DNA of 64,000 bases from Terriglobia bacterium (GCA_963823095.1 CAWGKI010000019.1:181129-245128), one strand, 5' to 3'; numbered from the stretch's first letter, positions 14,649 to 32,917 are shown. The notes: a model not told the origin generated them from the sequence alone. Translations and numbers: made by a program.

Positions 14649-14879
14649 CCAGCGGGGAGGAATCGGTAATAGTCTTCGTGACAATCCGCATTCGGGAGGC
14701 GCAGAGAGGCTTCTATCACATTGATTTTGCGGAAGGCCCATCGACCAAGGCCTCCGCGGAAGACCCCAGCGTACTGGCACCAACTCGGCCTTTTGGAATG
14801 AATAACTTGCGTGAAACGGAGCAGAGGAGGAATTGATTCTGAAGGAGGAAGAAACTGGCTTAAGTCTAATGGAATTAAT

Positions 14880-14929
14880 TGGTTGCGGGGGTAGGATTTG
14901 AACCTACGACCTTTGGGTTATGAGCCCAA
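14880..14929 (-). repeat. 50-nt exact copy of the 3' half of tRNA-Met (anticodon stem to CCA): putative att core repeat (distal island end)
   Basis: 14880-14929 is identical to 30722-30771 (..ttggttgcgggggtaggatttgaacctacgacctttgggttatgagcccaa); identity breaks in the anticodon stem; flank 14678-14879 is additionally homologous (about 70 to 95%) to 30520-30721. Confidence 0.7.
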
Positions 14930-15333
14930 AAAATGATTTGCCCTCAGTTCCCCTCCATTGCCCTGGCTTCCCCCAAGATAGTGATTTCATTGCCCTGGGG
15001 TGCCCTCAGTTTGGTGACAAAATTGGTGACAGTTGCCCTCGATTGCCCTGGGTTCCCCAACGGATTGGTGACAGAATTGGTGACGACTTTCGCCTCCTCG
15101 TTTGCGACCGACATGTGCAAGCTAGACTGCATGCAGGCGCCATTATCCACAGGCCGCTGCCCATCGTCAAGCTTGTATTGCTTGTCGCGCTCATTCGGAG
15201 CATTACCGTAGCACCCGGCCAGGGTCAATCGGACGCCGGTGATTGCAGCAGAGGATTGGGAAGACGCAATCAGGAGGACACCAAACTAATACTCCCGCCT
15301 CTCCGACGCGTCCTGGCACAACCTACTCCTCGG

Positions 15334-15783
15334 TCACTTCGGCCCGGTTGAACCCTCAAGATCGGTGGCCCAATCCACGACCGTCAGAAACGGAGTCACG
15401 TGCTGAAAGGCTTTGTCGTGGGAGACGAGGACTGCACCGGTAGACAGTGCGTGTGAGGCGATAAGCAGGTCCATGACTGCAAGGCTCTTCCCCGCCGTCT
15501 TCAAGCGGGACCGCAGTCTTCCGTATGCTTGCGCTGCGGCAGAGTCCCAGGAGCGTATCTCGACTGCATCAAACAGCGTCTCAACCGAGGCCCGAAGGCG
15601 CGTGGCTTCCGGCTTCGACTCCAGCCCAAACAGAATCTCTGCTTCGGTAATCGTAGAAATCCCCACGGCTGTATGTTGAAGCGTCTGCTTCAACATCTCT
15701 CGCGCCGATTGTGAGCGACCGCTGACGATGTACGCTGTGATATTCGTATCGAGCAGATAGAGCGAAGAGCCGGTCACATCCAC
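15334..15783 (-). CDS. vapC: VapC family toxin (PIN domain ribonuclease)
   Basis: PIN-domain signature LYLLDTNITAYIV..; acidic residues spaced as in VapC; GTG start overlaps upstream antitoxin gene. Confidence 0.8.
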   Translation of the reverse strand: MDVTGSSLYLLDTNITAYIVSGRSQSAREMLKQTLQHTAVGISTITEAEILFGLESKPEATRLRASVETLFDAVEIRSWDSAAAQAYGRLRSRLKTAGKSLAVMDLLIASHALSTGAVLVSHDKAFQHVTPFLTVVDWATDLEGSTGPK

Positions 15784-16025: not shown

Positions 16026-16232
16026 CGGGATTCCCCTTTGATATCCATCATGATAGGCATCACGGCCGATGTCAAGATCTTGGGCACTCGCGAGAAATCA
16101 CCGGTGTCGTGCTTCCGGAAAACAAGTTCCTTTCGGGCTGCACTCGAATCCCGGGCTCACACGAGGTTACTCCCCACGAATCCGAGTGCCTCTGAAAATG
16201 CAGCGTGGTGAGAGGGAGCGCCTTTGCCGGAT

Positions 16233-17055
16233 GTGTTGCAACTTTGAAAGGGCAGCAAGTGACTCACTCGGTGGGTCGATTGGAGGCTACCTCGGGCAGC
16301 CAGATCGAACAACTTGTGGATGAACTGAATCTGCCTTGAAACATCCGAGCCGCTCACCCCCTGCGCCTGCCCCTTCCGGATCATATGCATCGCCTCGTAG
16401 CCCTCGATGGTTCGGCGCGCCGCGTGAAATTCGCGAAAGCCCTGCTCGGCTTTTACTCGTCGTTTGATCGCTCGATGGTCTTGCTCCAGCACATGATTCA
16501 AATACTGCACCGGGCGGTGCCGGCAGCGGCGACGAAGCGTACCTTCTTCTTTGACCCCCGGAATGGCGGGGTCTTAGATGCGGGCCTGGTCGGTGTCGAT
16601 CACGCGAGGCTGGGGATGCGCTGGATCGGCGAGAGCCTTGCGGAATAGTCGTTTGGCGGCTGCGGCATCACGCAACGCCGAGAGCAGGAAGTAGATGGTG
16701 GCGCCGCAGGAATCGATGGCTCGATACAGGTAGCACCAGCGGCCCTGCACTCGAATGTAAGTCTCATCTACGCGCCAGGATTTGTTGGTCGGCTTGAAAT
16801 GACGGCGCAGGCGTTGATCCAGTCCGGGGCCGTAGCGTTGCACCCAGTGCCAAATTGTCGTGTGGTCCGCCTCCACGCCGCGCTTAGTGAGCAGTTCTTC
16901 GACATCGCGGACCAAGAGCGAGTAGCGAAGATACCAACGCACGGCACAAAGAATGAACTCGGGGACCGTTTGCCGCCACTTGAAGATCGTCGGACGGATT
17001 ACCTTCTTCCCGGTCAATTCAGGCTGCCAGCCCCCACCTGGCAAAGTTGCAACAC
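16233..17055. mobile_element. IS6-family insertion sequence (about 823 bp) with imperfect terminal inverted repeats
   Basis: Left end gtgttgcaactttg (16233-16246) and right end ggcaaagttgcaacac (17040-17055) form IRs resembling IS26 GGCACTGTTGCAAA; internal transposase homologous to IS26 Tnp. Confidence 0.65.
16270..17017 (-). pseudogene. IS6-family (IS26-like) DDE transposase, frameshifted between about 16510 and 16575
   Basis: N-terminal piece (16574-17083 ORF: ..ILCAVRWYLRYSLLVRDVEELLTKRGVEADHTTIWHWVQRYGP..WRVDETYIRVQGRWCYLYRAID..VIDTDQA) and C-terminal piece (16157-16510 ORF: ..QYLNHVLEQDHRAIKRR..GF..TIEGYEAMHMIRKGQA) match IS26 Tnp but sit in different frames. Confidence 0.65.
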
Positions 17056-17333
17056 AACCGACTTTGACCCCTCCAGGCTCCAATTTCGTCCTGGTGCGGA
17101 GGACCCGAAACCGGGAATTCCAGGCAATTCAAGGCGTTTTACAGACACCGCTGCGGACCCTCCATCCTGCGCAACCGGATTTCGCTGACTCGTTGCCCAC
17201 GCGCTTCCGAAGAGCGTGTTTCCGGAACCGCCGAACGCGCCTCGTCGGACACCCGCTGGGCTTGGCGGCGGCACGCTCTGGAGGCCCAGATTCCGATACG
17301 CACGAAGGCGAAGCCGATATCGCCGTGGAAAAA

Positions 17334-17432: not shown

Positions 17433-18668
17433 ATGAAGCTTCTGCTTTGGATTGTGACGCTGACCGCGTGTATCGCTCCGGCGTCGGGTCAACGGAAGGC
17501 CGATCTTTCGAGGCTCGTCGTTATCGGCGACTCTTTGAGCGCGGGCTATCAAAATGGCTCGCTGCTCTCAACACAGCAGCCGCACGGCTATGCCAGTCTG
17601 GTCGCGAAGCAGGCCCAGGTGGCATTGTTCCTTCCTCTCATCGCTGCCCCGGGCATACCCAATGTCCTCGTTTTGTTGAGTCCCGGACCTCCGCCGATTA
17701 TTCTCCGGGCTCCCGGTGTGTCCTCCGGGCGTGTCGACCTCTCAACACAAGCCACCGATCTGGCGGTGCCCGGCCAGAACCTGCAAGACGCGCTAACCAC
17801 CCGGCCAAACTTGCCTATCGACGACATGACCGACCTGGTGCTGGGGCTCCCCGGTCTCCTGGCGGGGGTTTCCAAGAGTCAGGTGGAATGGGCTGAATCG
17901 CTCAACCCCACGACGGTCCTGGTCTGGCTGGGCAATAACGACGCCCTCGGCGCCGCAATCGCCGCGGACTCGAGCATCCTCACCCCGACCGCGCAATTCC
18001 AAGCGGCCTTTACGCAGGTCATGGACCGACTAGAGGCAACAGGGGCGAAACTCGTGGTCGCGAACATTCCCGATGTCACCGTGATTCCCTACCTGACCCC
18101 GGCGCTGAAGGTGGCTGAGACAGTGGGATTGCCCCTTTCAATAATTGGCCCGATTCTGGGGATCCAAGACGGCGATTTCGTTACTCCGGACGCGCTACCG
18201 CTGATTCCAGCCATCCTGCATGACCCAGCGCTGGGACCTTTGCCGGGCAACGTGGTGCTAACCGCCGCCGAGGTCGTGCAGATTCGCGCCGCCGTCGCCA
18301 GTTACAACCAGATCATCGAGTCGCAAGCTCGGGCCAAGGGAGCCGCTCTTGTGGACATCCACGCTCTTCTCAACCGAATCCACGCACAGGGATTCGTGAT
18401 TGATGGACACAGGCTCACCACGGACTTTCTCGGCGGCATCTTCTCGCTGGACGGTATTCACCCTACAAACACCGGGGCAGCGATACTCGCCAACGCATTC
18501 ATACACGCGCTAAACAGACATTTCGCAGCAGGCATTTCACCTGTCAACGTCGAGCAGATCGCCAGCACCGACCCATTAGTTCTACCCGGCGTCGGTCGCC
18601 CGGTGTCTTCGCTCGGGCACATCGACTCCGAGACCGCCGATTCGGTTCGGAAGCTGGTGGTTCACTGA
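17433..18668 (+). CDS. secreted SGNH/GDSL-family hydrolase (lipase/esterase-like)
   Basis: Signal peptide MKLLLWIVTLTACIAPASG; block I VVIGDSLSAGY (GDSL Ser), C-terminal DGIHPT catalytic His block. Confidence 0.75.
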   Translation: MKLLLWIVTLTACIAPASGQRKADLSRLVVIGDSLSAGYQNGSLLSTQQPHGYASLVAKQAQVALFLPLIAAPGIPNVLVLLSPGPPPIILRAPGVSSGRVDLSTQATDLAVPGQNLQDALTTRPNLPIDDMTDLVLGLPGLLAGVSKSQVEWAESLNPTTVLVWLGNNDALGAAIAADSSILTPTAQFQAAFTQVMDRLEATGAKLVVANIPDVTVIPYLTPALKVAETVGLPLSIIGPILGIQDGDFVTPDALPLIPAILHDPALGPLPGNVVLTAAEVVQIRAAVASYNQIIESQARAKGAALVDIHALLNRIHAQGFVIDGHRLTTDFLGGIFSLDGIHPTNTGAAILANAFIHALNRHFAAGISPVNVEQIASTDPLVLPGVGRPVSSLGHIDSETADSVRKLVVH

Positions 18669-19734: not shown

Positions 19735-19961
19735 TCGGGGCAAGCCGGACAAGGTCCATGGGGTTACGCCGGATCAGAGTCATGCTTTCAGCACCGCGAC
19801 GCAACAACCTGGAATTGTCGTCGCCACTGGAGCTTCGATGCAGCGCTTACGCCCTGGAGACTTCCGCGAGCAATGAACCTCCAAATGGGACTCACAGGCT
19901 TGTTCTCAGCGGCTGTGATTGAGGAAGACAGGTGTACTCTCAGGGAACGCTGGATGCCAAG

Positions 19962-20654
19962 ATGGAGTCCTCTTTGAGAATCATGATCGATACAGTGCCA
20001 CTCGCCGCGGTGCTGCTGGCCGCCACCGCGCTTGTGCAGGCGCAAGAGTCCGTTGGGCCTAGCGTCTCGGCGCCGCAGATTTTGTCGAAGGCCGAGCCAC
20101 AATACACTGAGGAAGCGCGCCACGCCCGGGTGAACGCCACCGTAACGGTTAAGCTTGTCGTGGGGCCGGAGGGTAACACACACGATATCCGTGTCATCCG
20201 CGGGGCCGGGTTTGGATTGGATGAGAACGCCATCGAATGCATGAAGACCTGGCGTTTCGCACCCGGTAGGAAAGATGGGAAGGCCGTCGCAGTGTTTGCA
20301 ACCGTCGAAGTGGACTTCCGGCTCATGGTGAAAGAGAACGAAGGCCAGCATGCGAGATTAGCCTTTACTCTGCCCCCCGGAGCCACTCGGCCGGAATTGG
20401 TCAAAGGCAGGATACCGGCAAACCCCGGTTCCTCACACCCAGACCAGCGCTTCCGCATTAGCATGACCGTCGATTCCACGGGAGTACCCGAGAATCTGAC
20501 CGTCGTCGATGCTACCGACCCCAAATGGGCCGATCGGGCATTGCACGAACTCAAGGGCTGGCGATTCGTTCCCGCCAGCGCCAACGGTCAGGCGGTTGCG
20601 GTCGAGGGGGTTTTCGAGTTAGGGGCCGGCAACCTCCGCTACATGTTGCAATGA
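19962..20654 (+). CDS. secreted protein with two TonB C-terminal-like domains (energy transducer TonB family)
   Basis: Signal peptide MESSLRIMIDTVPLAAVLLAATALVQA; two repeats of TonB_C-like pattern (..EPQYTEEARHARVNATVTVKLVVGPEGNTHDIRVIRGAG..; ..NLTVVDATDPKWADRALHELKGWRFVPASANGQAVAVEGVFEL). Confidence 0.6.
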   Translation: MESSLRIMIDTVPLAAVLLAATALVQAQESVGPSVSAPQILSKAEPQYTEEARHARVNATVTVKLVVGPEGNTHDIRVIRGAGFGLDENAIECMKTWRFAPGRKDGKAVAVFATVEVDFRLMVKENEGQHARLAFTLPPGATRPELVKGRIPANPGSSHPDQRFRISMTVDSTGVPENLTVVDATDPKWADRALHELKGWRFVPASANGQAVAVEGVFELGAGNLRYMLQ

Positions 20655-20805: not shown

Positions 20806-22732
20806 ATGGCGGCGCATACTCGATCCACTGTGCGTCCGCTGACGACCAAGCTGCTCTCGGTCCGCCGGAGCTTGCCGTTGTTCCTGGCAATCGTTGTCTG
20901 CTTGGCGATTTTGCAGGTGTGGCTCACGTGGCGTCTGATGGAACAGGACCGCAACCTCGCCGCGCAGCAGTCGCGCGAGCGCCTGGGGCAGATCGCCGAC
21001 CTCGCTGTCGCTCAACTTGCCAGCATGCTCGGCGAATGGGACCTCAGCCTGCGTCAGTTGGACGCTCTGCCGCCTCCGGCCGCGTTAGCGGCCAAGCTGC
21101 CGCGAAACGGCGCGTTGTTACTGATGGCACATCAATCGGTAACTTCATACCGGGGCAAACCGCTCCTGTACGTGCCTGCGCCTCCTTCGGCTGCTCCGCT
21201 CCCGCGGGCTTTCGATGCCGCCGAGAAGCTGGAGTTCCGCGATCAGAACTACGCTCGGGCACTGGAAGCCTTACGGCCGTTGACCGAGCAGCCTGCAACG
21301 CGTGCGGAGGCCCTACTGCGCATCGCTCGATTGGAGCGCAGGCTGAACCATCCGGGCGAAGCACTGGCAACGTATTATCGATTGTCGCGGGAGACCGCCA
21401 GCAGCCCCGAGGGCGTGCCGTACGCGCTTTTGGCAGCGGGAGCGCGCTGCGAACTGCCGGGGCACGGCAATGCGGTGGAGCAGTTGCGTGCGGCGCTCCT
21501 CGAAGGCCGCTGGCCAATCCACCGCGAGACCTTCGAATACTATTGGGCCGAAGTAAATCACCTCCGGCACACTACTGAAGATCCCCCGAAGGAGTCGATG
21601 GAGTTCTCCGCACTGGTGTCGCGGCTATACGAAGAGTGGCAAAGGGCGGTGCGGTCCGGAGCCAGTTTCAGCGGTCGAGAGGCCGAGCCGGACGCGTCGC
21701 TGCTGATCTGGCACGCGACGCCGTCACGGCTCGCCGCATTGTCCGCACCCCCTGGCTGGCTTGGCGCCGGCCTAAAGCTGCCCGCCAACGCCAGCGACAT
21801 TCGTTGGAAATGGATGGCTCCAGGCTTGTCAGCGTCAGGTTCAACAGCAGGCGCCGAGGCAGATGTGTCGCGTTCTCTGGCCGAGGCACAACTCACGGGC
21901 AAGCTTGAGTTCTCCAGCATCTCCGGCGTCTCATCTCGGGGGCTCAACCGCGCGCGGTGGCTGTCCGGTGTGGGACTGATGCTGGCATTGGTGCTGGCGG
22001 GCGCATACGCCATGTATCGGGGCGTAAGCCGGGAACTGCGCGTGGCAGTGCTCCAATCGGACTTCGTCTCCGCCGTTTCGCACGAGTTCCGCTCGCCGCT
22101 CACCTCGCTCAGGAGTATCACCGAGTTACTCGTGAACAACCGTCTGGCGGACGAGGGCCGCAGGCAGCAGAGTTACGTCTTTTCTGGAACGCGAAACAAG
22201 CCGGCTGCAACACCTGGTGGAAGATCTGCTCGATTTCGGACGCATGGAATCCGGGCGCAAGCAGTACCGCATCGAGCGGCACGACGTGTTTGGCCTGGTG
22301 CGGGGGGTTGTGGCGGATTTTCGCGAAGAGGCGCTGGCCAGCGGCTTCCAAGTGGAAATGAATCTCGATCCAAGCGAGGCGACCATCAAGGCGGATGACG
22401 AAGCGCTGCGGCGCGCGATCCGCAACCTGCTCGAAAACGCTTTGAAGTATTCACCGGAATGCCGCACCGTGTGGGTGGAAGGCCGGGTGAATCATCGCCA
22501 GGTAATGATTTCGGTGCGCGATCGCGGCATGGGCATCGATCCGCAGGAGCAGCGCGAGATATTTCAGAAATTCGTGCGAGGCGCGGCGGCGAAGAAGGCG
22601 GGTATCAAAGGCACGGGCATCGGGCTATCGATGGTACGGCAAATCGTCGATGCATGCGGAGGAGAGATCCGCCTGGAGAGTCAGGCAGGTGTGGGCAGCA
22701 CGTTCACGATCAAGCTACCTTTGGCCGGTTAA
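20806..22732 (+). pseudogene. sensor histidine kinase (two TM helices, roughly 360-aa periplasmic domain, HisKA + HATPase_c); 1-nt insertion in T-run at 22180-22183 splits it into two ORFs
   Basis: H-box VLQSDFVSAVSHEFRSPLTSLRSITELL in 20806-22398 ORF; continuation FLERETSRLQHLVEDLLDFGRMESG.. plus N/G1/G2 boxes (NLLENALKYS, DRGMGID, GTGIGLSMV) in 22217-22732 ORF; removing one T from gtcttttctgg restores ..SYVFLERETSRL.. Confidence 0.75.
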
Positions 22733-22746
22733 CGAGGAAGCGCGGA

Positions 22747-23868
22747 ATGGTCAGAATTCTAGTTGTCGAAGACGAACCCGGTATCGCGTTTGGCATCGAA
22801 AATGACCTTCAGGCGGAAGGTTACGACGTTACTGTTGCGAGCGACGGCAACGAAGCGGTTCGCCGCGCCCGCGCAGAGACCTTTGACCTGATTCTGCTTG
22901 ACGTAATGCTGCCGCATAAGGATGGCTTCGAGGTATGCCGCGACCTGCGCAGCGGTGGCCTGACCACGCCGATCGTGATGCTGACGGCGAAGACCGGCGA
23001 GTTCGACAAAGTAATGGGGCTCGATCTCGGAGCGGACGACTATGTCACTAAGCCGTTTAGCGCGCGCGAACTGCGAGCCCGGATTCGGGCGGCATTGCGT
23101 CACCAACCAGCCGGAGATTCCGCGGGCCCGGATATGCAGCGGCAACTCCGGGTGGCCTCGGATGTTCAGCACCGCTTATTCCCCCAGCTTCGTCCAGTCG
23201 TGGCGACTCTCGACTACGCGGGCTTCTGCCAGCCCGCGCTCGGAATGAGCGGCGACTACTACGATTTCCTGGACCTCTCGCCCGGCAAGCTCGGCTTGCT
23301 CGTGGCCGATGTAGTAGGCAAGGGCGTTCCTGCCGCTCTGCTGATGGCGTCCGTCCACAGCGCGATGCGCACGCTGGCGCCGCAGTTCGGAGAGCGTTGC
23401 GGCGAGCTGCTGGCCCAGCTCAACACGGTGCTCTATGAAGCGACGGCTGCCGATATGTACGCCACTATGTTCTATGCGGTCTACGACGACGCGTCGCGTG
23501 TGCTGACCTATTCGAACGCGGGGCATGAACCGCCGTTGTTGTTTCGCGCGACGGCGGCTGATGCCCGGCATATGCGATTGGATTCGGGCACAACTCCGGT
23601 GGGCCTGCTGCCTCAGTTGCCCACCGTACAGACGAGTGTCCAACTCGTTCCGGGAGACTGGCTGATTGTCTTTACCGACGGGATCACCGAAGCGCTAAAC
23701 GAAAGCGGACAAGAATTCGGTGCGGCCGGCTTAATCGCAGCGGTGGACGCCGCCTCCGCCCGGAACGCGGAGCAAATGCGCGACGCAATCGTCGGCGAAC
23801 TCCGCGGCTACAGCGGATCCATCCCGCAATCGGACGACATTACGCTCATCACTGCGCGCGTTCAATAG
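22747..23868 (+). CDS. response regulator with PP2C-type (SpoIIE/RsbU-like) serine phosphatase output domain
   Basis: REC domain (MVRILVVEDEP..DLILLDVMLP..TPIVMLTA..GADDYVTKPF) fused to PP2C/SpoIIE domain (..GMSGDYYDFLDL..LLVADVVGKGVPAALLMA..FTDGITEA..). Confidence 0.85.
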   Translation: MVRILVVEDEPGIAFGIENDLQAEGYDVTVASDGNEAVRRARAETFDLILLDVMLPHKDGFEVCRDLRSGGLTTPIVMLTAKTGEFDKVMGLDLGADDYVTKPFSARELRARIRAALRHQPAGDSAGPDMQRQLRVASDVQHRLFPQLRPVVATLDYAGFCQPALGMSGDYYDFLDLSPGKLGLLVADVVGKGVPAALLMASVHSAMRTLAPQFGERCGELLAQLNTVLYEATAADMYATMFYAVYDDASRVLTYSNAGHEPPLLFRATAADARHMRLDSGTTPVGLLPQLPTVQTSVQLVPGDWLIVFTDGITEALNESGQEFGAAGLIAAVDAASARNAEQMRDAIVGELRGYSGSIPQSDDITLITARVQ

Positions 23869-23870
23869 CT

Positions 23871-24563
23871 ATGGAAAGCGAACGTATGGCCAAGATTCTA
23901 GTTGTCGAAGACGAACCCGCCATCGCCTTCGCCCTGGAAAACGATCTTCATACGGAGGGTTACGAGATAACGCTAGTGGGCGACGGAGTGGAAGCCGTAA
24001 AGCGTGCCCGCGCGGAGTCCTTCGACCTGATCCTGCTGGACGTCATGCTGCCCAATAAGGACGGCTTCGAGGTCTGCCGCGAGCTGAGGCACGGCGGTCT
24101 GAGCACGCCCATCATCATGTTGACCGCAAGGATGCAGGAAGCGGAAAAGATTCTGGGGCTGGACGTGGGCGCCGACGATTATGTGACCAAGCCGTTCAGC
24201 CCGCGCGAGCTGCGCGCGCGCATCCGGGCCATGCTTCGGCGAAACGTGGTTGAGACGGGCGGCGAGGTACATCGCTTTGGCCGTTGCGAGTTGGACCTGG
24301 CGCGTTTCGAACTGCGGCGGGAGGGCCGCAAACTGGAGGCCACACACACTGAACTGAAACTCCTGACCGCTTTCATCCGCAACCGGGGACGCGTGCTCAC
24401 GCGCGAGGCCCTCCTCGAAAACGTCTGGGGTTCCGGCGTCTTCGTGACCGACCGTGTGGTGGACAACCACATTGTGGCGCTGCGGAAAAAGATAGAGGAC
24501 GATCCCTCCGCGCCCCGGTACCTGATCAGCATCCGCGGTATGGGCTATCGATTTGATGGGTAG
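23871..24563 (+). CDS. OmpR/PhoB-family response regulator (REC + winged-helix DNA-binding domain)
   Basis: REC (ILVVEDEP..DLILLDVMLP..TPIIMLTAR..GADDYVTKPF) plus trans_reg_C (..LTRTEFKLL-like ELKLLTAFIRNRGRVLTREALLENVWG..VDNHIVALRKKIE..YLISIRGMGYRF); its REC is about 75% identical to REC of preceding gene. Confidence 0.9.
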   Translation: MESERMAKILVVEDEPAIAFALENDLHTEGYEITLVGDGVEAVKRARAESFDLILLDVMLPNKDGFEVCRELRHGGLSTPIIMLTARMQEAEKILGLDVGADDYVTKPFSPRELRARIRAMLRRNVVETGGEVHRFGRCELDLARFELRREGRKLEATHTELKLLTAFIRNRGRVLTREALLENVWGSGVFVTDRVVDNHIVALRKKIEDDPSAPRYLISIRGMGYRFDG

Positions 24564-24674
24564 GTCCCCACGTGTCAGGAAATTCAGACCGAGTTCGTGC
24601 AAGATCCTGACTGAATCCCGATAACCCGCAAACATTGCCGCCGCATTCTGAAATCGCACTCCGGGAGGTGCGGC

Positions 24675-26783
24675 ATGAAACTCGAAAGACTCGAAAACCT
24701 GGCGCTGGCCTTGACGGCAGTCTTTTCCTTAATCCTCTGCGGAGCTGCCGTCGTCAGTATGATCGTGCTCGCTAGCCTGATTCTGGAGTTCGCCGCAGTG
24801 CCGCTGCATGCGCAAACGAGCCCCGCGGTCGAGCTTCAGGCGGCGATGACCAAAGAACAAGTGGATGGCGACCTCAAGACCGCAATCGCCGCCTATCAGA
24901 AGATCGCGGCGGACAAGTCTGCTCCCCGCGACGTACGCTCCAAGGCGCTGCTCCACCTGGCCGGTTGCTACGAAAAGCTCGGGCAGCGGGCCCAGAGCGT
25001 GTACCAGCAGATTGTGCGTGATTTTGCGGACCAGCCCGCCGCCGCGCAGGCGCGGGCGCGGCTCGCGGCGTTGAAGCAGGATGACCGTTCCGCCGCGCCC
25101 ACGGCGATGACGCAGCGCAAAATCCAGCCATTAGGCACTTGCCCGCCCCCGAATACCATCTGCATGGACCCCATCGACACCGACGGTCAACGAATGGTGT
25201 ACTTCAATTACTCAGCCGGGGAAGTGGTTTACGGTAACGCTGCCCAAAACAGCAAGCGTGTCTTCTTCAAGTTCAAACCAGGTGCAGGGAGTAGTCTCTA
25301 TCCGTCGAGGGACTTCTCGAAGGCTCTCATTGAAGTCAACAGCCAAACTGGCGAATTAGCCGGAGGCCAATTAGCCGTCGTTAACACGGATGGGACCGGT
25401 TATCGCGAACTCGGCAAGTTCGCCAGCCTCCAGCACGGAGCTGAGAGCTGGTCTTGGGATAATCGGTCCGTCCTGGTCCCGTGTCAAACTCCAGGGGGTA
25501 AGGGCCGCCTGCTGAGTGTCTCGCTCGCCGATGGCCAAATCCGCGAGTTGGTCAGTCTCGAAACAGGAACGGTAGCCCGTGCCGTGTTCTCTCCAGACGG
25601 CCGCTTCGTGGCCTACGAAGTCCCCGCGCCCTCGGTGGAGGATCCGGAGTCGAGGATGTTCGTGGTGCCTGCCCAGGGGGGACAACCGCAATTAGTCTAC
25701 CAGCAGCGGCTGACATGGTTCTCTCCTTGGGAACGACCGGTCAAACTCCTGGATTGGACGGCTGACGGACGCTTTCTCGCCATTGCCAGCGATCGCACAG
25801 GCAAAGGCGCGCTTCACCTTCTGCCAATGAAAGACGGCAAATCTGCTGGCGCCCCAGTCTTTGTCAAGTATGGAGATTTCGAAGAGGGCGTCACGACTGC
25901 CGCCGGGGGATTGGTTTACCGTTCTATCAAACCTGGTGGCCTATTTTCGGTCTATCTGGCATCGCTCGATGCGGCTGGTCGCCCAGGCGATTGGAAACGC
26001 CTGGATCTTCCCCTTGGCAATACCCTCTTTCCGGAGACTAATTGGTCTATTGACAGCAATGAAATCGTCTACTCTGCGATGAACGAAGACTCGGGACAAT
26101 CTGGTGGCCAGGTGGTCCATCTGCGTAACCTCTCCACGGGAGCGGATCGCGAGATCTATCACGCGCTCGGTTACTCCACTTGCGCATGGGCGTTTCAGCA
26201 ACCGAAGCTTTTCTGCGGCGACTACACGGCCGCAAAGTCGGACATCTTTTCGATTGCGGTGGACTCAGGGGAAATTACCCGGCTCCACACCTTTCAAAGG
26301 CCGGCGATCGGGATGCCCTACCCCAGCCAAGACGATCGGGCGCTTTACCTTACTCGCATACTCGGGGACGGCAAGTGGGAACTCCTGCGATGGGAAATCG
26401 CGACCGGGCGGGAGACGATACTCGAGAAGTTCATCCCCACCGAGACCTTTGTGCTGTTATCGGCGGACACGCGCTGGCTCATCCGCGCGAACAGCGCCAA
26501 TAAAAGCCTCGATATACGCCTCGCGGCAGGCGGCGATTGGAAATCGCTCGTTTCCTTCAGCGAATTCTGGGGGGTGACGCTGCTCGTCAACGACACGCCT
26601 GACGGCAAGTGGCTGCTGTACCATGGCGTCGATTCCACTGGAAAACACAGCCTGTTTCGCATCGCGACTGCGGGCGGTACGCCGGAGCGGCTGGGCGACT
26701 TCTCAACATCGGAGGCTTTGGAACCATGGTGGTCAGCCCCGATGGGAGCAAGATTCTCGTCGTCTCGCGGGCACGTTTTCTAA
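24675..26783 (+). CDS. membrane-anchored/secreted TPR-like + TolB-like (PD40) beta-propeller protein, copy 1 (C-terminal 35 codons disrupted by indels)
   Basis: Hydrophobic N-terminus, TPR-like helical segment (..LKTAIAAYQKIAADKSAPRDVRSKALLHLAGCYEKLGQ..), then PD40-type repeats (FSPDGRFVAYE, WTADGRFLAIASDRTGKGALHLLPMKDGKS); the last 100 nt differ from copy 2 by a -1 and a +2 indel. Confidence 0.7.
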   Translation: MKLERLENLALALTAVFSLILCGAAVVSMIVLASLILEFAAVPLHAQTSPAVELQAAMTKEQVDGDLKTAIAAYQKIAADKSAPRDVRSKALLHLAGCYEKLGQRAQSVYQQIVRDFADQPAAAQARARLAALKQDDRSAAPTAMTQRKIQPLGTCPPPNTICMDPIDTDGQRMVYFNYSAGEVVYGNAAQNSKRVFFKFKPGAGSSLYPSRDFSKALIEVNSQTGELAGGQLAVVNTDGTGYRELGKFASLQHGAESWSWDNRSVLVPCQTPGGKGRLLSVSLADGQIRELVSLETGTVARAVFSPDGRFVAYEVPAPSVEDPESRMFVVPAQGGQPQLVYQQRLTWFSPWERPVKLLDWTADGRFLAIASDRTGKGALHLLPMKDGKSAGAPVFVKYGDFEEGVTTAAGGLVYRSIKPGGLFSVYLASLDAAGRPGDWKRLDLPLGNTLFPETNWSIDSNEIVYSAMNEDSGQSGGQVVHLRNLSTGADREIYHALGYSTCAWAFQQPKLFCGDYTAAKSDIFSIAVDSGEITRLHTFQRPAIGMPYPSQDDRALYLTRILGDGKWELLRWEIATGRETILEKFIPTETFVLLSADTRWLIRANSANKSLDIRLAAGGDWKSLVSFSEFWGVTLLVNDTPDGKWLLYHGVDSTGKHSLFRIATAGGTPERLGDFSTSEALEPWWSAPMGARFSSSRGHVF

Positions 26784-27050
26784 TGACTACGAACTGTGGT
26801 CTCTCGAAAACTTCGTTCCTCCGGCGCCGAAACCGTGAGGAGTTGCGATTCGAATGTTGGGCAGAAGAGAGAAGATGATTCCTCCGCAGCCCGGTACCTG
26901 ATCAGCATCCGTGGTATGGGATATCGATTTGATGGGTAAGATCTCGCGTGTCAGGAAATCCAGACCGAGTTCATGCAAGGTCCTGACCGAATCCCGATAC
27001 TCCGCGAACATTGCAGCGGCATTCTGAAATCGCACTCTGGGAGGTGCGGC

Positions 27051-29207
27051 ATGAAACTCGAGAGACTCGAAAACCTGGCGTTGGCCTTGACGGCAGTCTT
27101 CTCCTTGCTGCTCTGCGCAACTGCAGTCTTGAGTATTGGCATACTGATTGGCCTGTTGTCCCAGTTCGCGGTCATGCCGCTGCATGCGCAAACCAGCCCC
27201 GCGGTCGAGCTTCAGGCGGCGATGACCAAAGAACAAGTGGATGGCGACCTCAAGACCGCCATCGCCGCCTATCAGAAGATCGCGGCGGACAAGGCTGCTC
27301 CCCGCGACGTGCGCTCGAAGGCTCTGCTCCATCTCGCCGGGTGCTACGAGAAGCTCGGACAGCAGGCACAGAGCGTGTACCAGCAGATTGTGCGTGATTT
27401 TGCGGACCAGCCCGCCGCCACGCAGGCGCGGGCGCGGCTCGCGGCGTTGAAGCAGGGTGACCGTTCCGCCGCGCCCACGGCGATGACGCAGCGCAAGATC
27501 CAGCCGTTAGGCACTTGCCCGGACCCGGAGGCTACCAATTGCGCGGGCCCGGGGGACACCGACGGTCACCGCATGGTGTACGCGAATTTCGCAGCCGGAG
27601 AAGTGGTTTATGGGGATCTTGCGCAACACAGCGAGGTTGTCCTTTTTAGGTTTAAACCCGGAGGCTTGGGTTGGTTCATTCCATCGAGAGATTTCTCGAA
27701 GGTCCTACTCGGAGTCCCCGGTGCGTCCGGCGGTCAACTAGCCGTCGTTAACACAGATGGGACGGGTTATCGCGAAATAGGCAAACTCGAGGTCCAACTG
27801 CGAGGTGTGAAGTGGTCTTGGGATAATCGCTACGTCCTGATCTGGGGCCAGTCTCCAGGGGGGAAGGGTCGCCTGCTGAGTGCCTCGCTCGCCGATGGCC
27901 AAACCCGGGAGTTGGTCACTCTCGAAACAGGAACAGTGGCGAGTGCAGCGTTTTCTCCGGACGGCCGTTTCGTGGCCTACGAGGTCCCCTCGCCCTCGGT
28001 GACCGACCCGGAATCCAGGATGTTCGTGGTGCCTGCTCAGGGGGGTCCGCCGTTGCTGGTCTACCAGCAACGACTGAGATGGGTTTCGCCTTGGCAACGG
28101 CCCGTCAGACTCCTGGATTGGACGGCCGACGGACGCTATCTCGCCATCGCCAGTGATCGCACAGGCAAGGGCGCGCTTCACCTCCTGCCCATGAAAGACG
28201 GCAAATCTGGCGGCGACCCAGTCTTTGTCAAGTACGGAGATTTCGAAGAGGGCGTCACGACAGCCTCAGGGGGAATGGTTTACACTTCGGTGAAACCTGG
28301 CGGCCTTTGGTCGGTCTATCTCACGTCGCTCGATGCGGATAGTCGGCCGGGCGATTGGAAACGCCTGGATCTTCCCCTCGGCAACACCTACAATCCGTGG
28401 CCTCAATGGTCTGTTGACAGCAGAGAAATCGTCTACTCTGCGATGAACGAAGATTCTGGACAATCCGGTGGCGAGGTGGTGCATCTGCGCAGCCTTTCTA
28501 CTGGAGCGGATCGCGAGATCTATCACGCGCTCGGTTACTCCACTTGCGCATGGGCGTTTCAGCAGCCAAAGCTTTTCTGCAGCGACTACACGGCTGAAAG
28601 GTCGGACATCTTTTCGATTGCGTCCGACTCCGGAGAAATCGCCCGGCTTCACACCTTTGAAACGCCCGCGGTCGCGTTGCCCTACCCCAGCCAAGATGAC
28701 CGGGCGCTTTACATGACTCGCATACTTGGGGACGGCGCGTGGGAACTCCTGCGATGGGAAATCGCGACCGGGCGGCAGACGATCCTCGAGAAGTTCATCC
28801 CGACCAAGGCCCAGGTTCTAATTTCGCCGGACGAGCGCTGGCTCATGCGGGTGAACATAACCAAGAATAGCTTCGACATACGCCCCGTGGCAGGCGGCGA
28901 CTGGAAATCTCTAGTTTCGTTCAGCGGCAGTAACGCTTGGAGGGGATCTGGGCACGTCAACGACACGCCCGACGGCAAGTGGCTGCTGTACCATGACGTC
29001 GATTCCACCGGAAAACACAGCCTGTTTCGCATAGCGGCCGCGGGCGGTTCGCCGGAGCGTCTGGGCGATTTCCCAACAAAGGAGAGGTCCGGCACCTTGG
29101 TGGTCAGCCCCGATGGGAGCAAGATCCTCGTCTCCGCGGGCGAGCCTTTTGATGGCTACGAACTGTGGTCTCTCGAAAACTTCGTTCCTCCGGCGCCGAA
29201 ACCGTGA
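27051..29207 (+). CDS. TPR-like + TolB-like beta-propeller protein, copy 2 (apparently intact, ends ..YELWSLENFVPPAPKP)
   Basis: ATG 27051 with GGGAGG RBS (27039-27044); about 90% aa identity to copy 1. Confidence 0.75.
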   Translation: MKLERLENLALALTAVFSLLLCATAVLSIGILIGLLSQFAVMPLHAQTSPAVELQAAMTKEQVDGDLKTAIAAYQKIAADKAAPRDVRSKALLHLAGCYEKLGQQAQSVYQQIVRDFADQPAATQARARLAALKQGDRSAAPTAMTQRKIQPLGTCPDPEATNCAGPGDTDGHRMVYANFAAGEVVYGDLAQHSEVVLFRFKPGGLGWFIPSRDFSKVLLGVPGASGGQLAVVNTDGTGYREIGKLEVQLRGVKWSWDNRYVLIWGQSPGGKGRLLSASLADGQTRELVTLETGTVASAAFSPDGRFVAYEVPSPSVTDPESRMFVVPAQGGPPLLVYQQRLRWVSPWQRPVRLLDWTADGRYLAIASDRTGKGALHLLPMKDGKSGGDPVFVKYGDFEEGVTTASGGMVYTSVKPGGLWSVYLTSLDADSRPGDWKRLDLPLGNTYNPWPQWSVDSREIVYSAMNEDSGQSGGEVVHLRSLSTGADREIYHALGYSTCAWAFQQPKLFCSDYTAERSDIFSIASDSGEIARLHTFETPAVALPYPSQDDRALYMTRILGDGAWELLRWEIATGRQTILEKFIPTKAQVLISPDERWLMRVNITKNSFDIRPVAGGDWKSLVSFSGSNAWRGSGHVNDTPDGKWLLYHDVDSTGKHSLFRIAAAGGSPERLGDFPTKERSGTLVVSPDGSKILVSAGEPFDGYELWSLENFVPPAPKP

Positions 29208-29419
29208 GGAGTTGCGATTCGAATGTTGGGCAGAAGAGAGAAGATGATTCCTCCGCAGCCCGGTACCAGACCAGCATTCGCGGTATGGGATATCGGTTTG
29301 ATGTGTAGGATCTCGCGTGCCAGGAAATCCAGACCAAGTTCACGCAAGGTCCTGACCGAATCCCGATATCCCGCAAACATTCCCGCCACATTCTGAAATC
29401 GCACTCTGGGAGGTGCGGC

Positions 29420-29983
29420 ATGAAACTCGAAAGAATCGAAAACCTGGCACTGGCCCTGACTGCAGTCTTTTCGATACTGCTCTGGGGAGCTGCCGTCGTC
29501 AGCATGGTCCTGTTGGCGGGCCTGATTTTGGAGTTCTCCGCAGTGCCGCTGCATGCGCAAACGAGTCCAGCGGTGGAGCTTCAGGCGGCGATGACCAAAG
29601 AACAAGTGGATGGCGACCTCAAGACCGCAATCGCCGCCTATCAGAGAATTGCGGCGGATAAGTCCGCTCCCCGCGACGTGCGCTCCAAGGCGCTGCTCCA
29701 TCTCGCGGGGTGCTACGAAAAGCTCGGGCAGCAGGCGCAGAGCGTGTACCAGCAAATCGTGCGTGATTTCGCGGACCAGCCCGCCGCCACGCAGGCCCGG
29801 GCACGGCTGGCGGCGTTGAAGCAGGATGACCGTCCCGGTGCGCCCACGGCGATGACGCAGCGCAAGATCCAGCCGTTAGGCAACCGCGTGGGCCCGCGCC
29901 CGGCGGACACCGACCGTCACCGATTAGGAGAGTACACATGCGAAAGACAATATCTATTACACTCGCGTTGCTCATGGCGTTGA
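29420..29983 (+). CDS. truncated third copy of TPR-like gene (N-terminal 150 aa only, then unrelated tail)
   Basis: Identical architecture through ..TAMTQRKIQPLG, then a deletion and divergence; likely gene remnant. Confidence 0.45.
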   Translation: MKLERIENLALALTAVFSILLWGAAVVSMVLLAGLILEFSAVPLHAQTSPAVELQAAMTKEQVDGDLKTAIAAYQRIAADKSAPRDVRSKALLHLAGCYEKLGQQAQSVYQQIVRDFADQPAATQARARLAALKQDDRPGAPTAMTQRKIQPLGNRVGPRPADTDRHRLGEYTCERQYLLHSRCSWR

Positions 29984-30306
29984 ACTTGGTCCCTTCGGCT
30001 TTTGGCAAGGACAGCGTAGCAAGCCAGATAACAGCCATGCCAATTGGCGCGAAGATCGAACTTCACCTCAAAAACAAACAAACCATGCGGGGTACCAGAG
30101 GGCAGTTATCGAACGCCGGTTTTGCGCTGGTCGACGCAAGTAAGCAAGAACACCAGATTGCGTTCGACGACGTGGGCTCGGTAAAACGGCTCACCACAAA
30201 GTCGCACCTCGCGCGCAACGTGCTGATCCTGGTTGGCCTCGGTGTGGTCGTGCTGGGTGTCATGGCCCTCCTCATAGAAGCTGCTCGTCACAAAGCACCG
30301 TTTTAA
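29938..30306 (+). CDS. small secreted protein with C-terminal transmembrane anchor (122 aa)
   Basis: Signal peptide MRKTISITLALLMALNLVPSAFG; C-terminal hydrophobic helix VLILVGLGVVVLGVMALLIEAA. Confidence 0.4.
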   Translation: MRKTISITLALLMALNLVPSAFGKDSVASQITAMPIGAKIELHLKNKQTMRGTRGQLSNAGFALVDASKQEHQIAFDDVGSVKRLTTKSHLARNVLILVGLGVVVLGVMALLIEAARHKAPF

Positions 30307-30721
30307 CATTTCCATATTGAAATGTCTGGACGGATTCCGCGGAAAGCATGCGTATTCCGGGCGATGCCGATCATGATTCCGGCTGATGGTCTGTCACTGT
30401 TTAGCTTGTCTTGCGCGAGGAATTTAGGGTAATCATCTGGCTTCACGCAACCCAGTGTGCACGGGCATATTCCCCCAATGAGCCGACTGCCCTTGGGCGG
30501 GGAATTGGTGACAGTATTGGTGACATTCCGCATTCAGTACGTTCGGAGAAGCGTATATCGCATTGATTTCGCAGGAGGTCCATGGGCGAGGGCTTCCGCG
30601 GGAGAACCCAATGTGCTGTCACCAATTTCGTCTTTTGGAATGAATAACTTGCGTGGAACAGAGCAGAGGAGAAATTGATTCTGAAGGAGGAGGAAACTGG
30701 CTTAAGTCTAATGGAATGAAT

Positions 30722-30798
<77 letters not shown>

Positions 30799-31084
30799 CT
30801 CTGACTATAGCGAACCCGACCAGCTTCCGCAATGAAATCGGTAACGCCACTGTGACCGAATTCCGGACCGAATTCCGGACCCTTCGCCCCGTTCCTCGCG
30901 TATGCTGTCCTGAGAGGTGTCCGCGATGTTTCTCGCCGCATGTCCGCGTCCCGCCGCCAGACGGCCGGTGGCCCTCTCTCACGCCTGTCCTTTGCCATAG
31001 ATTCCACACCGCTGGCCAGAAGTGCGCCTTCCGGGCGCCCGCCCGCGGCCGTCGTGGAATTCGATCGAGAAATAGGAGAAATTC

Positions 31085-32917
31085 ATGTTCGAAGCGTGGT
31101 ATTACGTCGTAGCCCTGCTTGGGTTAGTCGTCCTGCTGCTGTGCGCCAAGGCCCTGTTGGGCCTGGTCAGTATCCGGGAAATACAGGTCGGGATCGTTGT
31201 TAAGAAGTTCAGATTGGGCGGCGCCGGCCTGCCCAATGGGCGCATCGTCGCGCTCAACGGGGAACCCGGAATTCAGGCCGACACGCTTGCTCCGGGACTT
31301 CATTTCTGGTACTGGCCCTGGGTCTATCGGGTCGAAAAGGTTCCGGTCGTCGTCGTGCCGCCCGGCCACCTTGGATTGGTCAACGCGCGCGATGGCGATC
31401 CAATCCCGGTGAACCGCATCCTCTGCTCCGCCGTACCCTGCGACAATTTCCAGGACGCGCGCAAATTCCTCTCGTCGGGAGGACAAAGAGGTCGTCAGTC
31501 GGCCATGCTGACCGCCGGTCTGTACCGCATCAACACCGCTCTGTTCGAGGTCAAGACCGACATCCCGATCCGGCGCATCGAATCGAACAAAATCGGCGTC
31601 GTCACCGCGCTGGATGGCGCACCGATGCCAGCCGGCCAGATGGCCGCGCCCGAGGTGGCCGGACACAACAACTTCCAGGATCCCGAGGCCTTCGTCCATA
31701 ATGGCGGCAGCCGCGGGCTGCAGCAGCAGATCATCCTGGCCGGAACTTGGAATATCAATCCGTGGTTCGCCGAAGTGGAGGAGTTCGATCTGACCGAAGT
31801 GCCCATCGGCCACGTCGGCGTTGTCGTCAGCTACGTCGGCAGCGAGGAGCAGTCCAAGGACATTTCCGGCGAGGGCTTCACTCACGGCAATATCGTCACG
31901 GTCGGCGGCAAGGGCGTCTGGAAGGACCCGCTGTATCCGGGCAAGCACCCGTTGAACGTGAAGATCATGCGCGTCGAGATCGTCCCGACCACGAACATCG
32001 TCCTGAACTGGGCCAACACCCGCAGCGAGTCTCACAAGCTCGACGAGCGTCTCTGTACCATCAGCGTGCGCTCCTTCGACGGCTTCACCTTCAACCTCGA
32101 CGTCAGCCAGATTATCAACATCGGCGCGACCAAAGCCCCCTGGGTCATCTCTCGCGTCGGCTCGGTCCAGAACCTGGTCGCTCAGGTGCTTGAACCCATC
32201 GTCGGCAATTACTTCCGCAATTCGGCTCAGGCTTACACGGTCCTGGACTTTCTCTCCAACCGGACCGAGCGCCAGAAGGAAGCGCGCGAGCATATCGCCG
32301 GGGCCATTCAGCTCTACGACGTCCAATCCGTCGATACGCTGATCGGCGACATCACGCCGCCGCCTGAGCTGATGAAAACTCTCACTGATCGCAAACTCGC
32401 CGATGAGCAGCGCAAGACTTTCATAGTCCAGCAGACCAGCGAGACCACGCGCCAGGAGTTGGAGCGGCAGCGGGCGCTGGCCGATAAGCAGCGCGAGATC
32501 CTCAACTCGGAACAGGACGTGCGTATCGCCGAAATGCGCGCCAACGCAGTGGTCAAGACTGCCGCCGGTGAATCGGAAGCGGCCGCCAAGCGATCGGAAG
32601 GACAGGCTGCGGCCGCTCTCAAAGTCGGCTCGGCGGAAGCGGACGTGGTCGCCATGAAGGGCCGCCGCGAGGCCGAGGCGATTGCGGCCATCGGCAATGC
32701 GCGTGCCGAGGCCTATCAGGTCGGCGTGAAGGCGCTGGGAGATACTTTCGGTCTGCTCCAGATCTTCACGACACTCGCAGACAAGAACATTCGCCTCACG
32801 CCAGACGTGTTGGTCAACGGCTCGCAGGGATCGGGTGCGTCCGAGGGACTTATCGCGCTGTTACTGCGAGATCTGGTGACAAGTCATCCTCCGTCGCAGG
32901 CTCCGGGTCAGAAGTAG
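31085..32917 (+). CDS. flotillin-family protein (SPFH/band-7 domain, YqiK/FloT-like)
   Basis: N-terminal TM helix, SPFH domain, long C-terminal coiled coil with Ala/Glu-rich heptads (..AEMRANAVVKTAAGESEAAAKRSEGQAAAALKVGSAEADVVAMKGRREAEAIA..). Confidence 0.85.
   Translation: MFEAWYYVVALLGLVVLLLCAKALLGLVSIREIQVGIVVKKFRLGGAGLPNGRIVALNGEPGIQADTLAPGLHFWYWPWVYRVEKVPVVVVPPGHLGLVNARDGDPIPVNRILCSAVPCDNFQDARKFLSSGGQRGRQSAMLTAGLYRINTALFEVKTDIPIRRIESNKIGVVTALDGAPMPAGQMAAPEVAGHNNFQDPEAFVHNGGSRGLQQQIILAGTWNINPWFAEVEEFDLTEVPIGHVGVVVSYVGSEEQSKDISGEGFTHGNIVTVGGKGVWKDPLYPGKHPLNVKIMRVEIVPTTNIVLNWANTRSESHKLDERLCTISVRSFDGFTFNLDVSQIINIGATKAPWVISRVGSVQNLVAQVLEPIVGNYFRNSAQAYTVLDFLSNRTERQKEAREHIAGAIQLYDVQSVDTLIGDITPPPELMKTLTDRKLADEQRKTFIVQQTSETTRQELERQRALADKQREILNSEQDVRIAEMRANAVVKTAAGESEAAAKRSEGQAAAALKVGSAEADVVAMKGRREAEAIAAIGNARAEAYQVGVKALGDTFGLLQIFTTLADKNIRLTPDVLVNGSQGSGASEGLIALLLRDLVTSHPPSQAPGQK

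Follow-up and report, generated by a model that had tools for sequence, protein, structure and literature searches.

A diverged tandem array of a TPR/double-propeller gene beside a two-component system in a Terriglobia bacterium

LpqB, the extracytoplasmic protein of the MtrAB-LpqB system, contains a beta-propeller-like domain, and we know of no tandem array of LpqB. Expansion of paralogue families under purifying selection is well documented in a related acidobacterium with a large genome, Candidatus Solibacter usitatus Ellin6076, where winged-helix two-component regulators are listed among the expanded groups (PMC3174227). Here we describe a locus in a stretch of 64,000 nucleotides (nt) from a Terriglobia bacterium (GCA_963823095.1, CAWGKI010000019.1:181129-245128), a soil acidobacterium of the family Bryobacteraceae; the stretch is hereafter called the window, with positions counted from its first letter. 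Downstream of a sensor histidine kinase gene and an OmpR-family response regulator gene, a gene for a protein with a tetratricopeptide repeat (TPR)-like domain and two beta-propellers is present in several tandem copies. We consider it likely that the locus arose by a lineage-specific tandem duplication, now represented by 2.3 copies, of a cassette consisting of a leader and the TPR/double-propeller gene, a cassette that is normally single-copy in Bryobacteraceae.

Geometry and condition of the array

Repeat finding on positions 22000-32000 together with alignment resolves three head-to-tail units at 24489-26864, 26865-29233 and 29234-~29923, which amounts to about 2.3 copies. The families of direct repeats that occur three times in this region have start-to-start spacings of 2376 and 2369 nt. 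In blastn comparisons, unit 1 and unit 2 (24489-26898 versus 26865-29267) are 84.8% identical over 2428 columns (E = 0), unit 2 and unit 3 (26783-27513 versus 29152-29882) are 89.2% identical, and unit 1 and unit 3 (24489-25137 versus 29234-29882) are 88.9% identical with no gap. A three-way alignment reveals one layout common to all units, in which about 75 nt of the 3' tail of the regulator gene are followed by a leader of about 110 nt and then by the large gene.

The regulator tail marks the boundaries of the units. The last ~75 nt of the regulator gene (24489-24563) reappear as relics on the (+) strand at the unit 1/2 junction (26865-26939) and at the unit 2/3 junction (29234-29308). The regulator protein used as a tblastn query independently matches the same places (26832-26936 and 29231-29302). 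At both junctions (26839-26939 and 29208-29308) the stop codon of the propeller gene is followed by a 26-nt spacer (26839-26864 in the first) and then by the relic. A longer upstream relic, reaching to a CCGTG that the propeller stop region has in common with the regulator gene and so implying a microhomology junction, was considered and rejected, as a global alignment of 24440-24492 with 26822-26868 is no better than shuffled sequences (P = 0.38). With units in the same orientation, a constant period, a novel junction that is repeated and a single-copy arrangement in relatives, the locus is a tandem segmental duplication.

An earlier note on this DNA had placed an array of 2.37-kb units at 24497-29930, and both the span and the unit size are essentially correct. 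The note had also bounded the units by the last 65 nt of the OmpR gene; such a relic does stand at every unit start, and its length is about 75 nt. The copy identity of about 90% given there is too high, since whole units are 85% identical and only their first 650 nt reach 89%. The view that this is a diverged, old amplification and not an assembly artefact agrees with our results, as the copies differ by 11-15% and synonymous divergence (dS) is 0.39. An assembly artefact is unlikely because the units have diverged to this extent, and the tandem array is confirmed as genuine and old.

The three gene copies differ in condition. Copy 2 (27051-29207, +; protein P0001) is intact, as had been claimed. 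It encodes a full-length product of 718 amino acids (aa) and ends with the C-terminus ELWSLENFVPPAPKP, which is common to nearly all homologues. Copy 1 (24675-26838, +; protein P0002) has two frame changes, near 26715-26719 and 26759-26767, and hence its open reading frame (ORF) as written stops at 26783 after 702 aa. The ancestral TGA (26836-26838) and the conserved C-terminal peptide persist in another frame, and correcting single bases lets the frame of copy 1 run on into the conserved C-terminus. The simplest reading of the alignment would be that one nucleotide was deleted from each of two short runs, GCTTT(T)GG and TC(C)GCGG, and that there is an extra GTC codon in frame; the '-1/+2' indels of the earlier description are equivalent to this. 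Mapped on the predicted structure of copy 2 (see below), the product of copy 1 as written would lack all but one of the four strands in the last blade.

Copy 3 (29420-29983, +) is a shortened gene with an ORF of 187 aa, annotated as the 187-aa protein P0121 in the source record. Its homology to the other copies stops at about nt 29923 (codon ~169), and six codons are deleted at 155-160. The homologous part takes in the hydrophobic helix, the TPR-like domain in full and a linker, after which about 18 unrelated codons overlap the next gene. The breakpoint lies 13-16 nt upstream of the ATG (29938) of that gene, which is unrelated and encodes 122 aa. The truncation is structural and base-calling error cannot be its cause. 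Copy 3 had been recognised as truncated before, with the end set after 150 codons; homology in fact runs on to codon ~169.

Substitution patterns indicate that the copies have been maintained for long. Between copies 1 and 2, dS is 0.39, non-synonymous divergence (dN) is 0.12 and dN/dS is 0.32. The TPR part is the most constrained (dN/dS 0.06-0.09) and the first propeller blades are the most diverged (dN 0.28). Private amino-acid changes in copy 1 versus copy 2, polarised with three outgroups, number 38 vs 30, 35 vs 38 and 37 vs 32. The relative-rate test is not significant with any of these outgroups, and relaxed constraint or faster evolution of copy 1 was rejected on this basis. In the 649 nt common to all units there are 30, 37 and 39 private sites, in a star-like pattern with local patches. 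These near-equal distances imply that the duplication rounds were close in time or that the units have been mixed by conversion. On the branch of copy 3 there are 17 synonymous and 7 non-synonymous changes in 154 codons (P = 3e-6 versus neutrality), which indicates that selection acted on the fragment during most of its history as a separate copy.

A tract of 112 nt at 26787-26898 (+) is 100% identical to 29156-29267 and runs from the end of the gene across the spacer into the relic. Its flanks are only 85-89% identical, and about 14 differences would be expected in a tract of this length at 12-13% divergence. Recent gene conversion would be the simplest explanation for this identity. The 'progressive decay' proposed by the earlier note is contradicted by purifying selection in every copy, by the lack of acceleration in copy 1 and by the equidistance of the units. 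We favour a history in which the paralogues were long maintained and the lesions would be either late events or sequencing errors.

Single-copy relatives and independent arrays

A search for orthologues located the single-copy ancestral arrangement in the loci of several relatives (L001-L004, L006, L007 and L010-L012), where a histidine kinase gene is followed by an OmpR-family regulator gene and one propeller gene. Adjacency of kinase, regulator and exported protein is conserved in all relatives examined. L002-L004 carry a second, diverged kinase-regulator-propeller triad 7-10 kb downstream, which indicates that the three genes are inherited together. In a neighbour-joining tree of 70+ homologues, copies 1 and 2 of the window are sisters. 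Their proteins are 77% identical, and the nearest other proteins reach 64-66%. As copies 1 and 2 are each other's closest relatives, the duplication is younger than the split from all sampled relatives.

Several relatives have arrays of their own. L008 contains at least two copies and the start of a third, and L016 contains a second copy. In both, the junction is made up of the stop codon, about 10 nt and a leader, with no regulator relic. L005 has three copies, with junctions that differ again. A contig of 25,142 nt from JGI sample 3300047160 carries the kinase and regulator followed by four propeller paralogues (709, 687, 678 and 681 aa) that are 38 nt apart or overlap. These are followed by a 191-aa ORF without a Pfam hit, which might be a fifth copy that is truncated, as copy 3 of the window is.

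Contraction and inactivation are seen as well. In L009-L012, the closest single-copy relatives, one copy is followed, directly after the propeller stop, by the first ~55 nt of a second leader including its inverted repeat (4022-4059 in L009, 5204-5241 in L010, 5870-5907 in L011 and 5509-5546 in L012). This relic is probably what is left of a second tandem copy that was lost, and would be a ready substrate for new unequal crossovers. In L013-L015 (for example L013, 5200-10117) the regulator is cut to 156 aa, leaving only the receiver, and the propeller gene is split into overlapping ORFs of 269 and 447 aa. The same product of 269 aa is found on 20 contigs derived from several samples, which makes this frameshift a real and widespread one. 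The propeller gene is also split in L017 and L018. The family shows recurrent expansion, contraction and inactivation, and the array in the window is one instance of this birth-and-death turnover in Bryobacteraceae.

The encoded protein, its leader and the surrounding genes

In Pfam searches the propeller protein has PD40 repeats and weak TPR signals. NCBIfam gives only sub-threshold matches for copy 2, namely the TolB propeller (TIGR02800) with 40.7 bits (E 1.4e-10, cut-off 343) and the YbgF TPR domain with 23 bits (cut-off 90). An AlphaFold 2 (AF2) model of copy 2 built on 61 homologues is confident, with a mean predicted local distance difference test score (pLDDT) of 87.9 and a predicted template modelling score (pTM) of 0.76. 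In the model a long N-terminal hydrophobic helix (residues 3-39) is followed by a TPR-like domain made of helices (50-137), after which about 45 beta-strands (146-709) build two propellers in tandem. A transmembrane anchor, TPR and a TolB-like PD40 propeller had been read from the sequence earlier; these domain types stand, with two propellers where one had been proposed.

In some family members a classical signal peptide takes the place of the long helix; 'LHA/QT' may be a cleavage site. We infer from these features that the protein would be periplasmic or membrane-anchored. It is not a member of TolB, tricorn or any curated family. The N-terminal helix and TPR-like module (residues 1-154 of copy 2) are 77-85% identical between lineages, compared with 59-66% for the whole protein. 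All 61 homologues share two invariant cysteines (C499 and C510 in copy 2) and several invariant tryptophans. Homologues are found in hundreds in genomes of Bryobacteraceae/Acidobacteriota and in soil and peat metagenomes.

Each copy of the gene is preceded by a leader on the (+) strand. Leader 1 (24564-24674, ~110 nt) has an inverted repeat, GTCAGGA-N24-TCCTGAC, at 24574-24611 and a GGGAGG ribosome-binding site. In leader 2 (26940-27050) the inverted repeat is intact at 26950-26987. In leader 3 (29309-29419) it is broken by a T-to-C change (GCCAGGA), and the ribosome-binding site and ATG are kept. The leader is present 5' of the propeller gene in every relative and is 85-95% conserved where the proteins are only ~60% identical; it contains the inverted repeat GTCAGGA-N24-TCCTGAC, which is invariant, and a GGAGG/GGGAGG ribosome-binding site. 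A search of the window for further members of a regulon found the inverted repeat in units 1 and 2 only and none outside the array, with 0 expected by chance.

A structured RNA in the leader was considered and rejected, as compensatory changes occur at none of the 20 predicted pairs in an RNAalifold alignment. An Rfam search over 24300-31200 gave only tRNA and no leader family. Since the leader is conserved at the sequence level and has no compensatory pairs, a DNA operator or promoter is more likely than an RNA element, and the leader is probably a DNA-level regulatory site for the adjacent regulator. The leader is part of the duplicated unit, and each paralogue has therefore retained a leader of its own. 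Each paralogue is probably under the same transcriptional control, most likely through the adjacent regulator.

The sensor histidine kinase gene (20806-22732, +) encodes a large periplasmic region, with Pfam HisKA in 20806-22398 and HATPase_c in 22217-22732. As written, one additional T in the TTTT run at 22180-22183 splits the gene between these two domains; in seven relatives the run is shorter by one T and the frame is uninterrupted. The response regulator gene (23871-24563, +; Response_reg E 2.7e-30, Trans_reg_C E 2.9e-25) has its stop codon at 24561-24563, and its tail starts unit 1. No NCBIfam equivalog reaches its cut-off with this protein (OmpR, NF007005, scores 194 bits vs 331), and the regulator is a member of the OmpR family and not OmpR proper. 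Between kinase and regulator lies a gene for a receiver and a PP2C/SpoIIE phosphatase (22750-23868, +; Pfam Response_reg and SpoIIE), and no such gene is present at that position in any relative examined. Its receiver (22747-22993) is 77% identical in nucleotide sequence to the receiver of the regulator (23886-24132), and the encoded protein is ~80% identical to the regulators of relatives. From these comparisons, the gene looks like a partial duplication of the 5' half of the regulator gene fused to a phosphatase domain.

At the other end of the module, the gene that abuts the truncation point of copy 3 (29938-30306, +) encodes a signal peptide and a C-terminal hydrophobic segment. Its product has no match in Pfam or NCBIfam, and no homologue lies beside the module in the loci of relatives.

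A direct repeat of 271 nt (14659-14929 and 30501-30771; 85% identical, ungapped) comprises the 3' half of tRNA-Met and ~220 nt of 3' flank, and brackets 15.6 kb including the whole two-component/propeller module. The tRNA-Met gene at 30722-30798 (-) scores well (69 bits), and the tRNA-like sequence at 14883-14957 (-) is marginal (32.7 bits). The GC content at third codon positions of genes inside the bracketed region is 0.69-0.74, below that of most flanking genes. This organisation suggests that the bracketed region may be an island inserted at tRNA-Met; no integrase was identified. The region also contains a PIN-domain (VapC-like) toxin gene and two IS6/IS240-type DDE transposase fragments (15334-15783, 16157-16510 and 16574-17083, all on the (-) strand). 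The transposase gene is split and hence probably degenerate. The fragments are followed by a GDSL lipase gene (17433-18668) and a gene for a double TonB_C protein (19932-20654). Just past the 5' end of tRNA-Met, a perfect 12-nt tandem repeat, GACCGAATTCCG, is present in 2.3 copies at 30854-30881, within a non-coding stretch of ~290 nt before an SPFH/Band-7 gene at 31085.

Origin of the array and comparison with known systems

The scar at the junctions allows a course of events to be proposed. The first duplication would have been an illegitimate recombination that joined a site 26 nt past the propeller stop to a site ~75 nt before the regulator stop, leaving the regulator-tail relic behind. 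By the simplest route, the third unit would then have come from unequal homologous recombination between units, and both rounds would be old (dS about 0.2-0.4) and close in time. Purifying selection has acted on all copies since then, and conversion has recently homogenised the 112-nt tract at both junctions. A later deletion would have taken everything after codon ~169 of copy 3. The pair of 1-nt frame changes close to where copy 1 ends and the +1 frameshift in the kinase would be recent lesions. The paralogues would be co-regulated through their own leaders, with the N-terminal TPR module as the conserved interaction part and the propellers as more variable binding surfaces. The earlier note had likened the proteins to periplasmic scaffold/sensor accessory proteins, a role that would be plausible in view of the conserved synteny. 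The protein could quite plausibly be a periplasmic binding partner or co-sensor of the kinase. It might also, with somewhat less plausibility, be a dedicated output of the two-component system.

Several points weigh against this account. The copy number and the three frameshifts are known from the assembled sequence alone, and two orders of events are conceivable, either full triplication followed by deletion or truncation at the two-copy stage followed by an unequal crossover. The low dN/dS of copy 3 may partly reflect conversion from copies since lost. Both the binding of the regulator to the leader and the contact between protein and kinase are putative only, and a simple sigma-70 scan finds no promoter in the leader. 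In addition, all three frameshifts stand at short homopolymers, where sequencing error fits as well as mutation.

This last point leads to the most serious of the rival explanations, namely that the frameshifts are sequencing or polishing errors and that in the true locus the kinase and two of the paralogues are intact and the third paralogue is truncated. All three indels are at short runs (TTTT versus TTT in the kinase; a TTT run and a C/CC site in copy 1), single-base corrections restore copy 1 to the conserved C-terminus, and copy 1 has no sign of relaxed constraint. However, ten other ORFs in the window that were suspected from frame overlap (not a full census) have Pfam domains complete from end to end, so the assembly is not generally indel-ridden and errors of this kind are uncommon in it. 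Real frameshifted copies also exist in relatives, on 20 independent contigs. The complete ORFs elsewhere and the broken copies in relatives make us lean towards real, recent inactivation, and we regard sequencing error as possible and the less probable of the two. The same lesions could be taken further, as signs that only copy 2 is functional, that copies 1 and 3 are degenerating and that the whole module including the kinase is being lost. Two frame changes in copy 1, the truncation of copy 3, a kinase frameshift absent from seven relatives, the clustering of three lesions within 4.6 kb whereas the ten other ORFs are complete, and broken modules in relatives are all in keeping with such a decaying pseudogene array. 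However, the substitution pattern shows that all copies were constrained through most of the period after duplication, copy 1 shows no acceleration, and the units are equidistant and not graded. Inactivation would be recent at most, and general decay is unlikely.

An assembly artefact, in the form of a collapsed, expanded or chimeric repeat, deserves mention as the window comes from a 469-kb metagenome-derived contig and repeats are a known assembly hazard. It is hardly credible here, given that the units differ at 11-15% of positions and by several indels, that the longest identical stretch is 112 nt, that each unit has private substitutions with a coding signature, and that similar arrays occur in the independent assemblies of relatives. 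A further possibility concerns copy 3, which might be a functional TPR-only paralogue kept by selection, for example as a competitor for a TPR-bound partner. It retains a ribosome-binding site, an ATG and the entire helix and TPR-like domain (AF2 residues 1-137), its private changes have a strong synonymous excess, and short ORFs follow arrays elsewhere (191 aa in the JGI contig and 182 aa in L016). However, a recent truncation would leave the same substitution signature, and the leader of copy 3 has no intact inverted repeat. Most short homologues in databases are contig-end fragments or frameshift halves, and the 182-aa ORF of L016 is followed by an overlapping ORF and so resembles a full copy with a frameshift. 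The idea of a functional 'short form' that recurs was rejected, as the search with copy 3 returned mostly such fragments and halves and gave no clear support. We consider selection for a TPR-only protein improbable. Similarly doubtful is a wider proposal, in which the leader and propeller cassette is an expandable array under the control of the regulator. Bryobacteraceae would, time and again and independently, amplify, diversify and prune the periplasmic TPR/double-propeller proteins that serve as co-sensors of one two-component system, each copy with its own operator, and would keep TPR-only remnants like copy 3 as functional modulators. If true, a two-component system would have its input range tuned by how many copies and variants of an accessory receptor there are, in a manner not described before.

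The lineage-specific tandem duplication of the leader and TPR/double-propeller cassette can be compared with several known systems. The encoded protein resembles TolB in its PD40-type beta-propeller fold. However, it is far below the cut-offs of the TolB and CpoB/YbgF families (40.7 vs 343 and 23 vs 90 bits). Unlike TolB, it has two propellers and no N-terminal alpha/beta domain, its N-terminus consists of a hydrophobic helix and a helical TPR-like domain, and its gene stands beside a two-component system and not in a tol-pal operon. In contrast to tricorn (PF26549 Tricorn_N, PF26550 Tricorn_2nd), it contains no protease, PDZ or catalytic domain, and tricorn Pfam families give no hit with it at E 0.01.

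The likeness to MtrAB-LpqB lies in the organisation, as in both cases the genes for kinase, regulator and extracytoplasmic protein are neighbours and their synteny is conserved. However, the gene order is different, the protein of the window has a TPR-like domain and two propellers, no LpqB family is among the Pfam or NCBIfam hits for copy 2, and the interaction with the kinase is putative here. What the window reveals is an abundant, uncharacterised protein family with a strict linkage to a kinase/regulator pair and to a highly conserved leader. The module is a concrete candidate for a 'three-component' signalling system in Acidobacteriota.

In terms of genome evolution, the locus is a tandem duplication of an ordinary kind, in a gene family that readily expands and loses members, and involves no new element or mechanism. 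It is nevertheless a well-resolved example of how paralogue families grow in the large genomes of soil bacteria, in which the scar dates and delimits the event, conversion is caught in progress, and relatives supply the single-copy ancestor, independent expansions and losses. The closest likeness in this respect is to Ellin6076, whose genome, likewise of the Bryobacterales type and with many mobile elements, also contains old, diverged paralogues on which purifying selection acts (PMC3174227). The window differs from it in that the amplified gene encodes the propeller protein and not the regulator, and in that the duplicated unit, the junction scar, the conversion tract and the single-copy ancestor are resolved at the nucleotide level.

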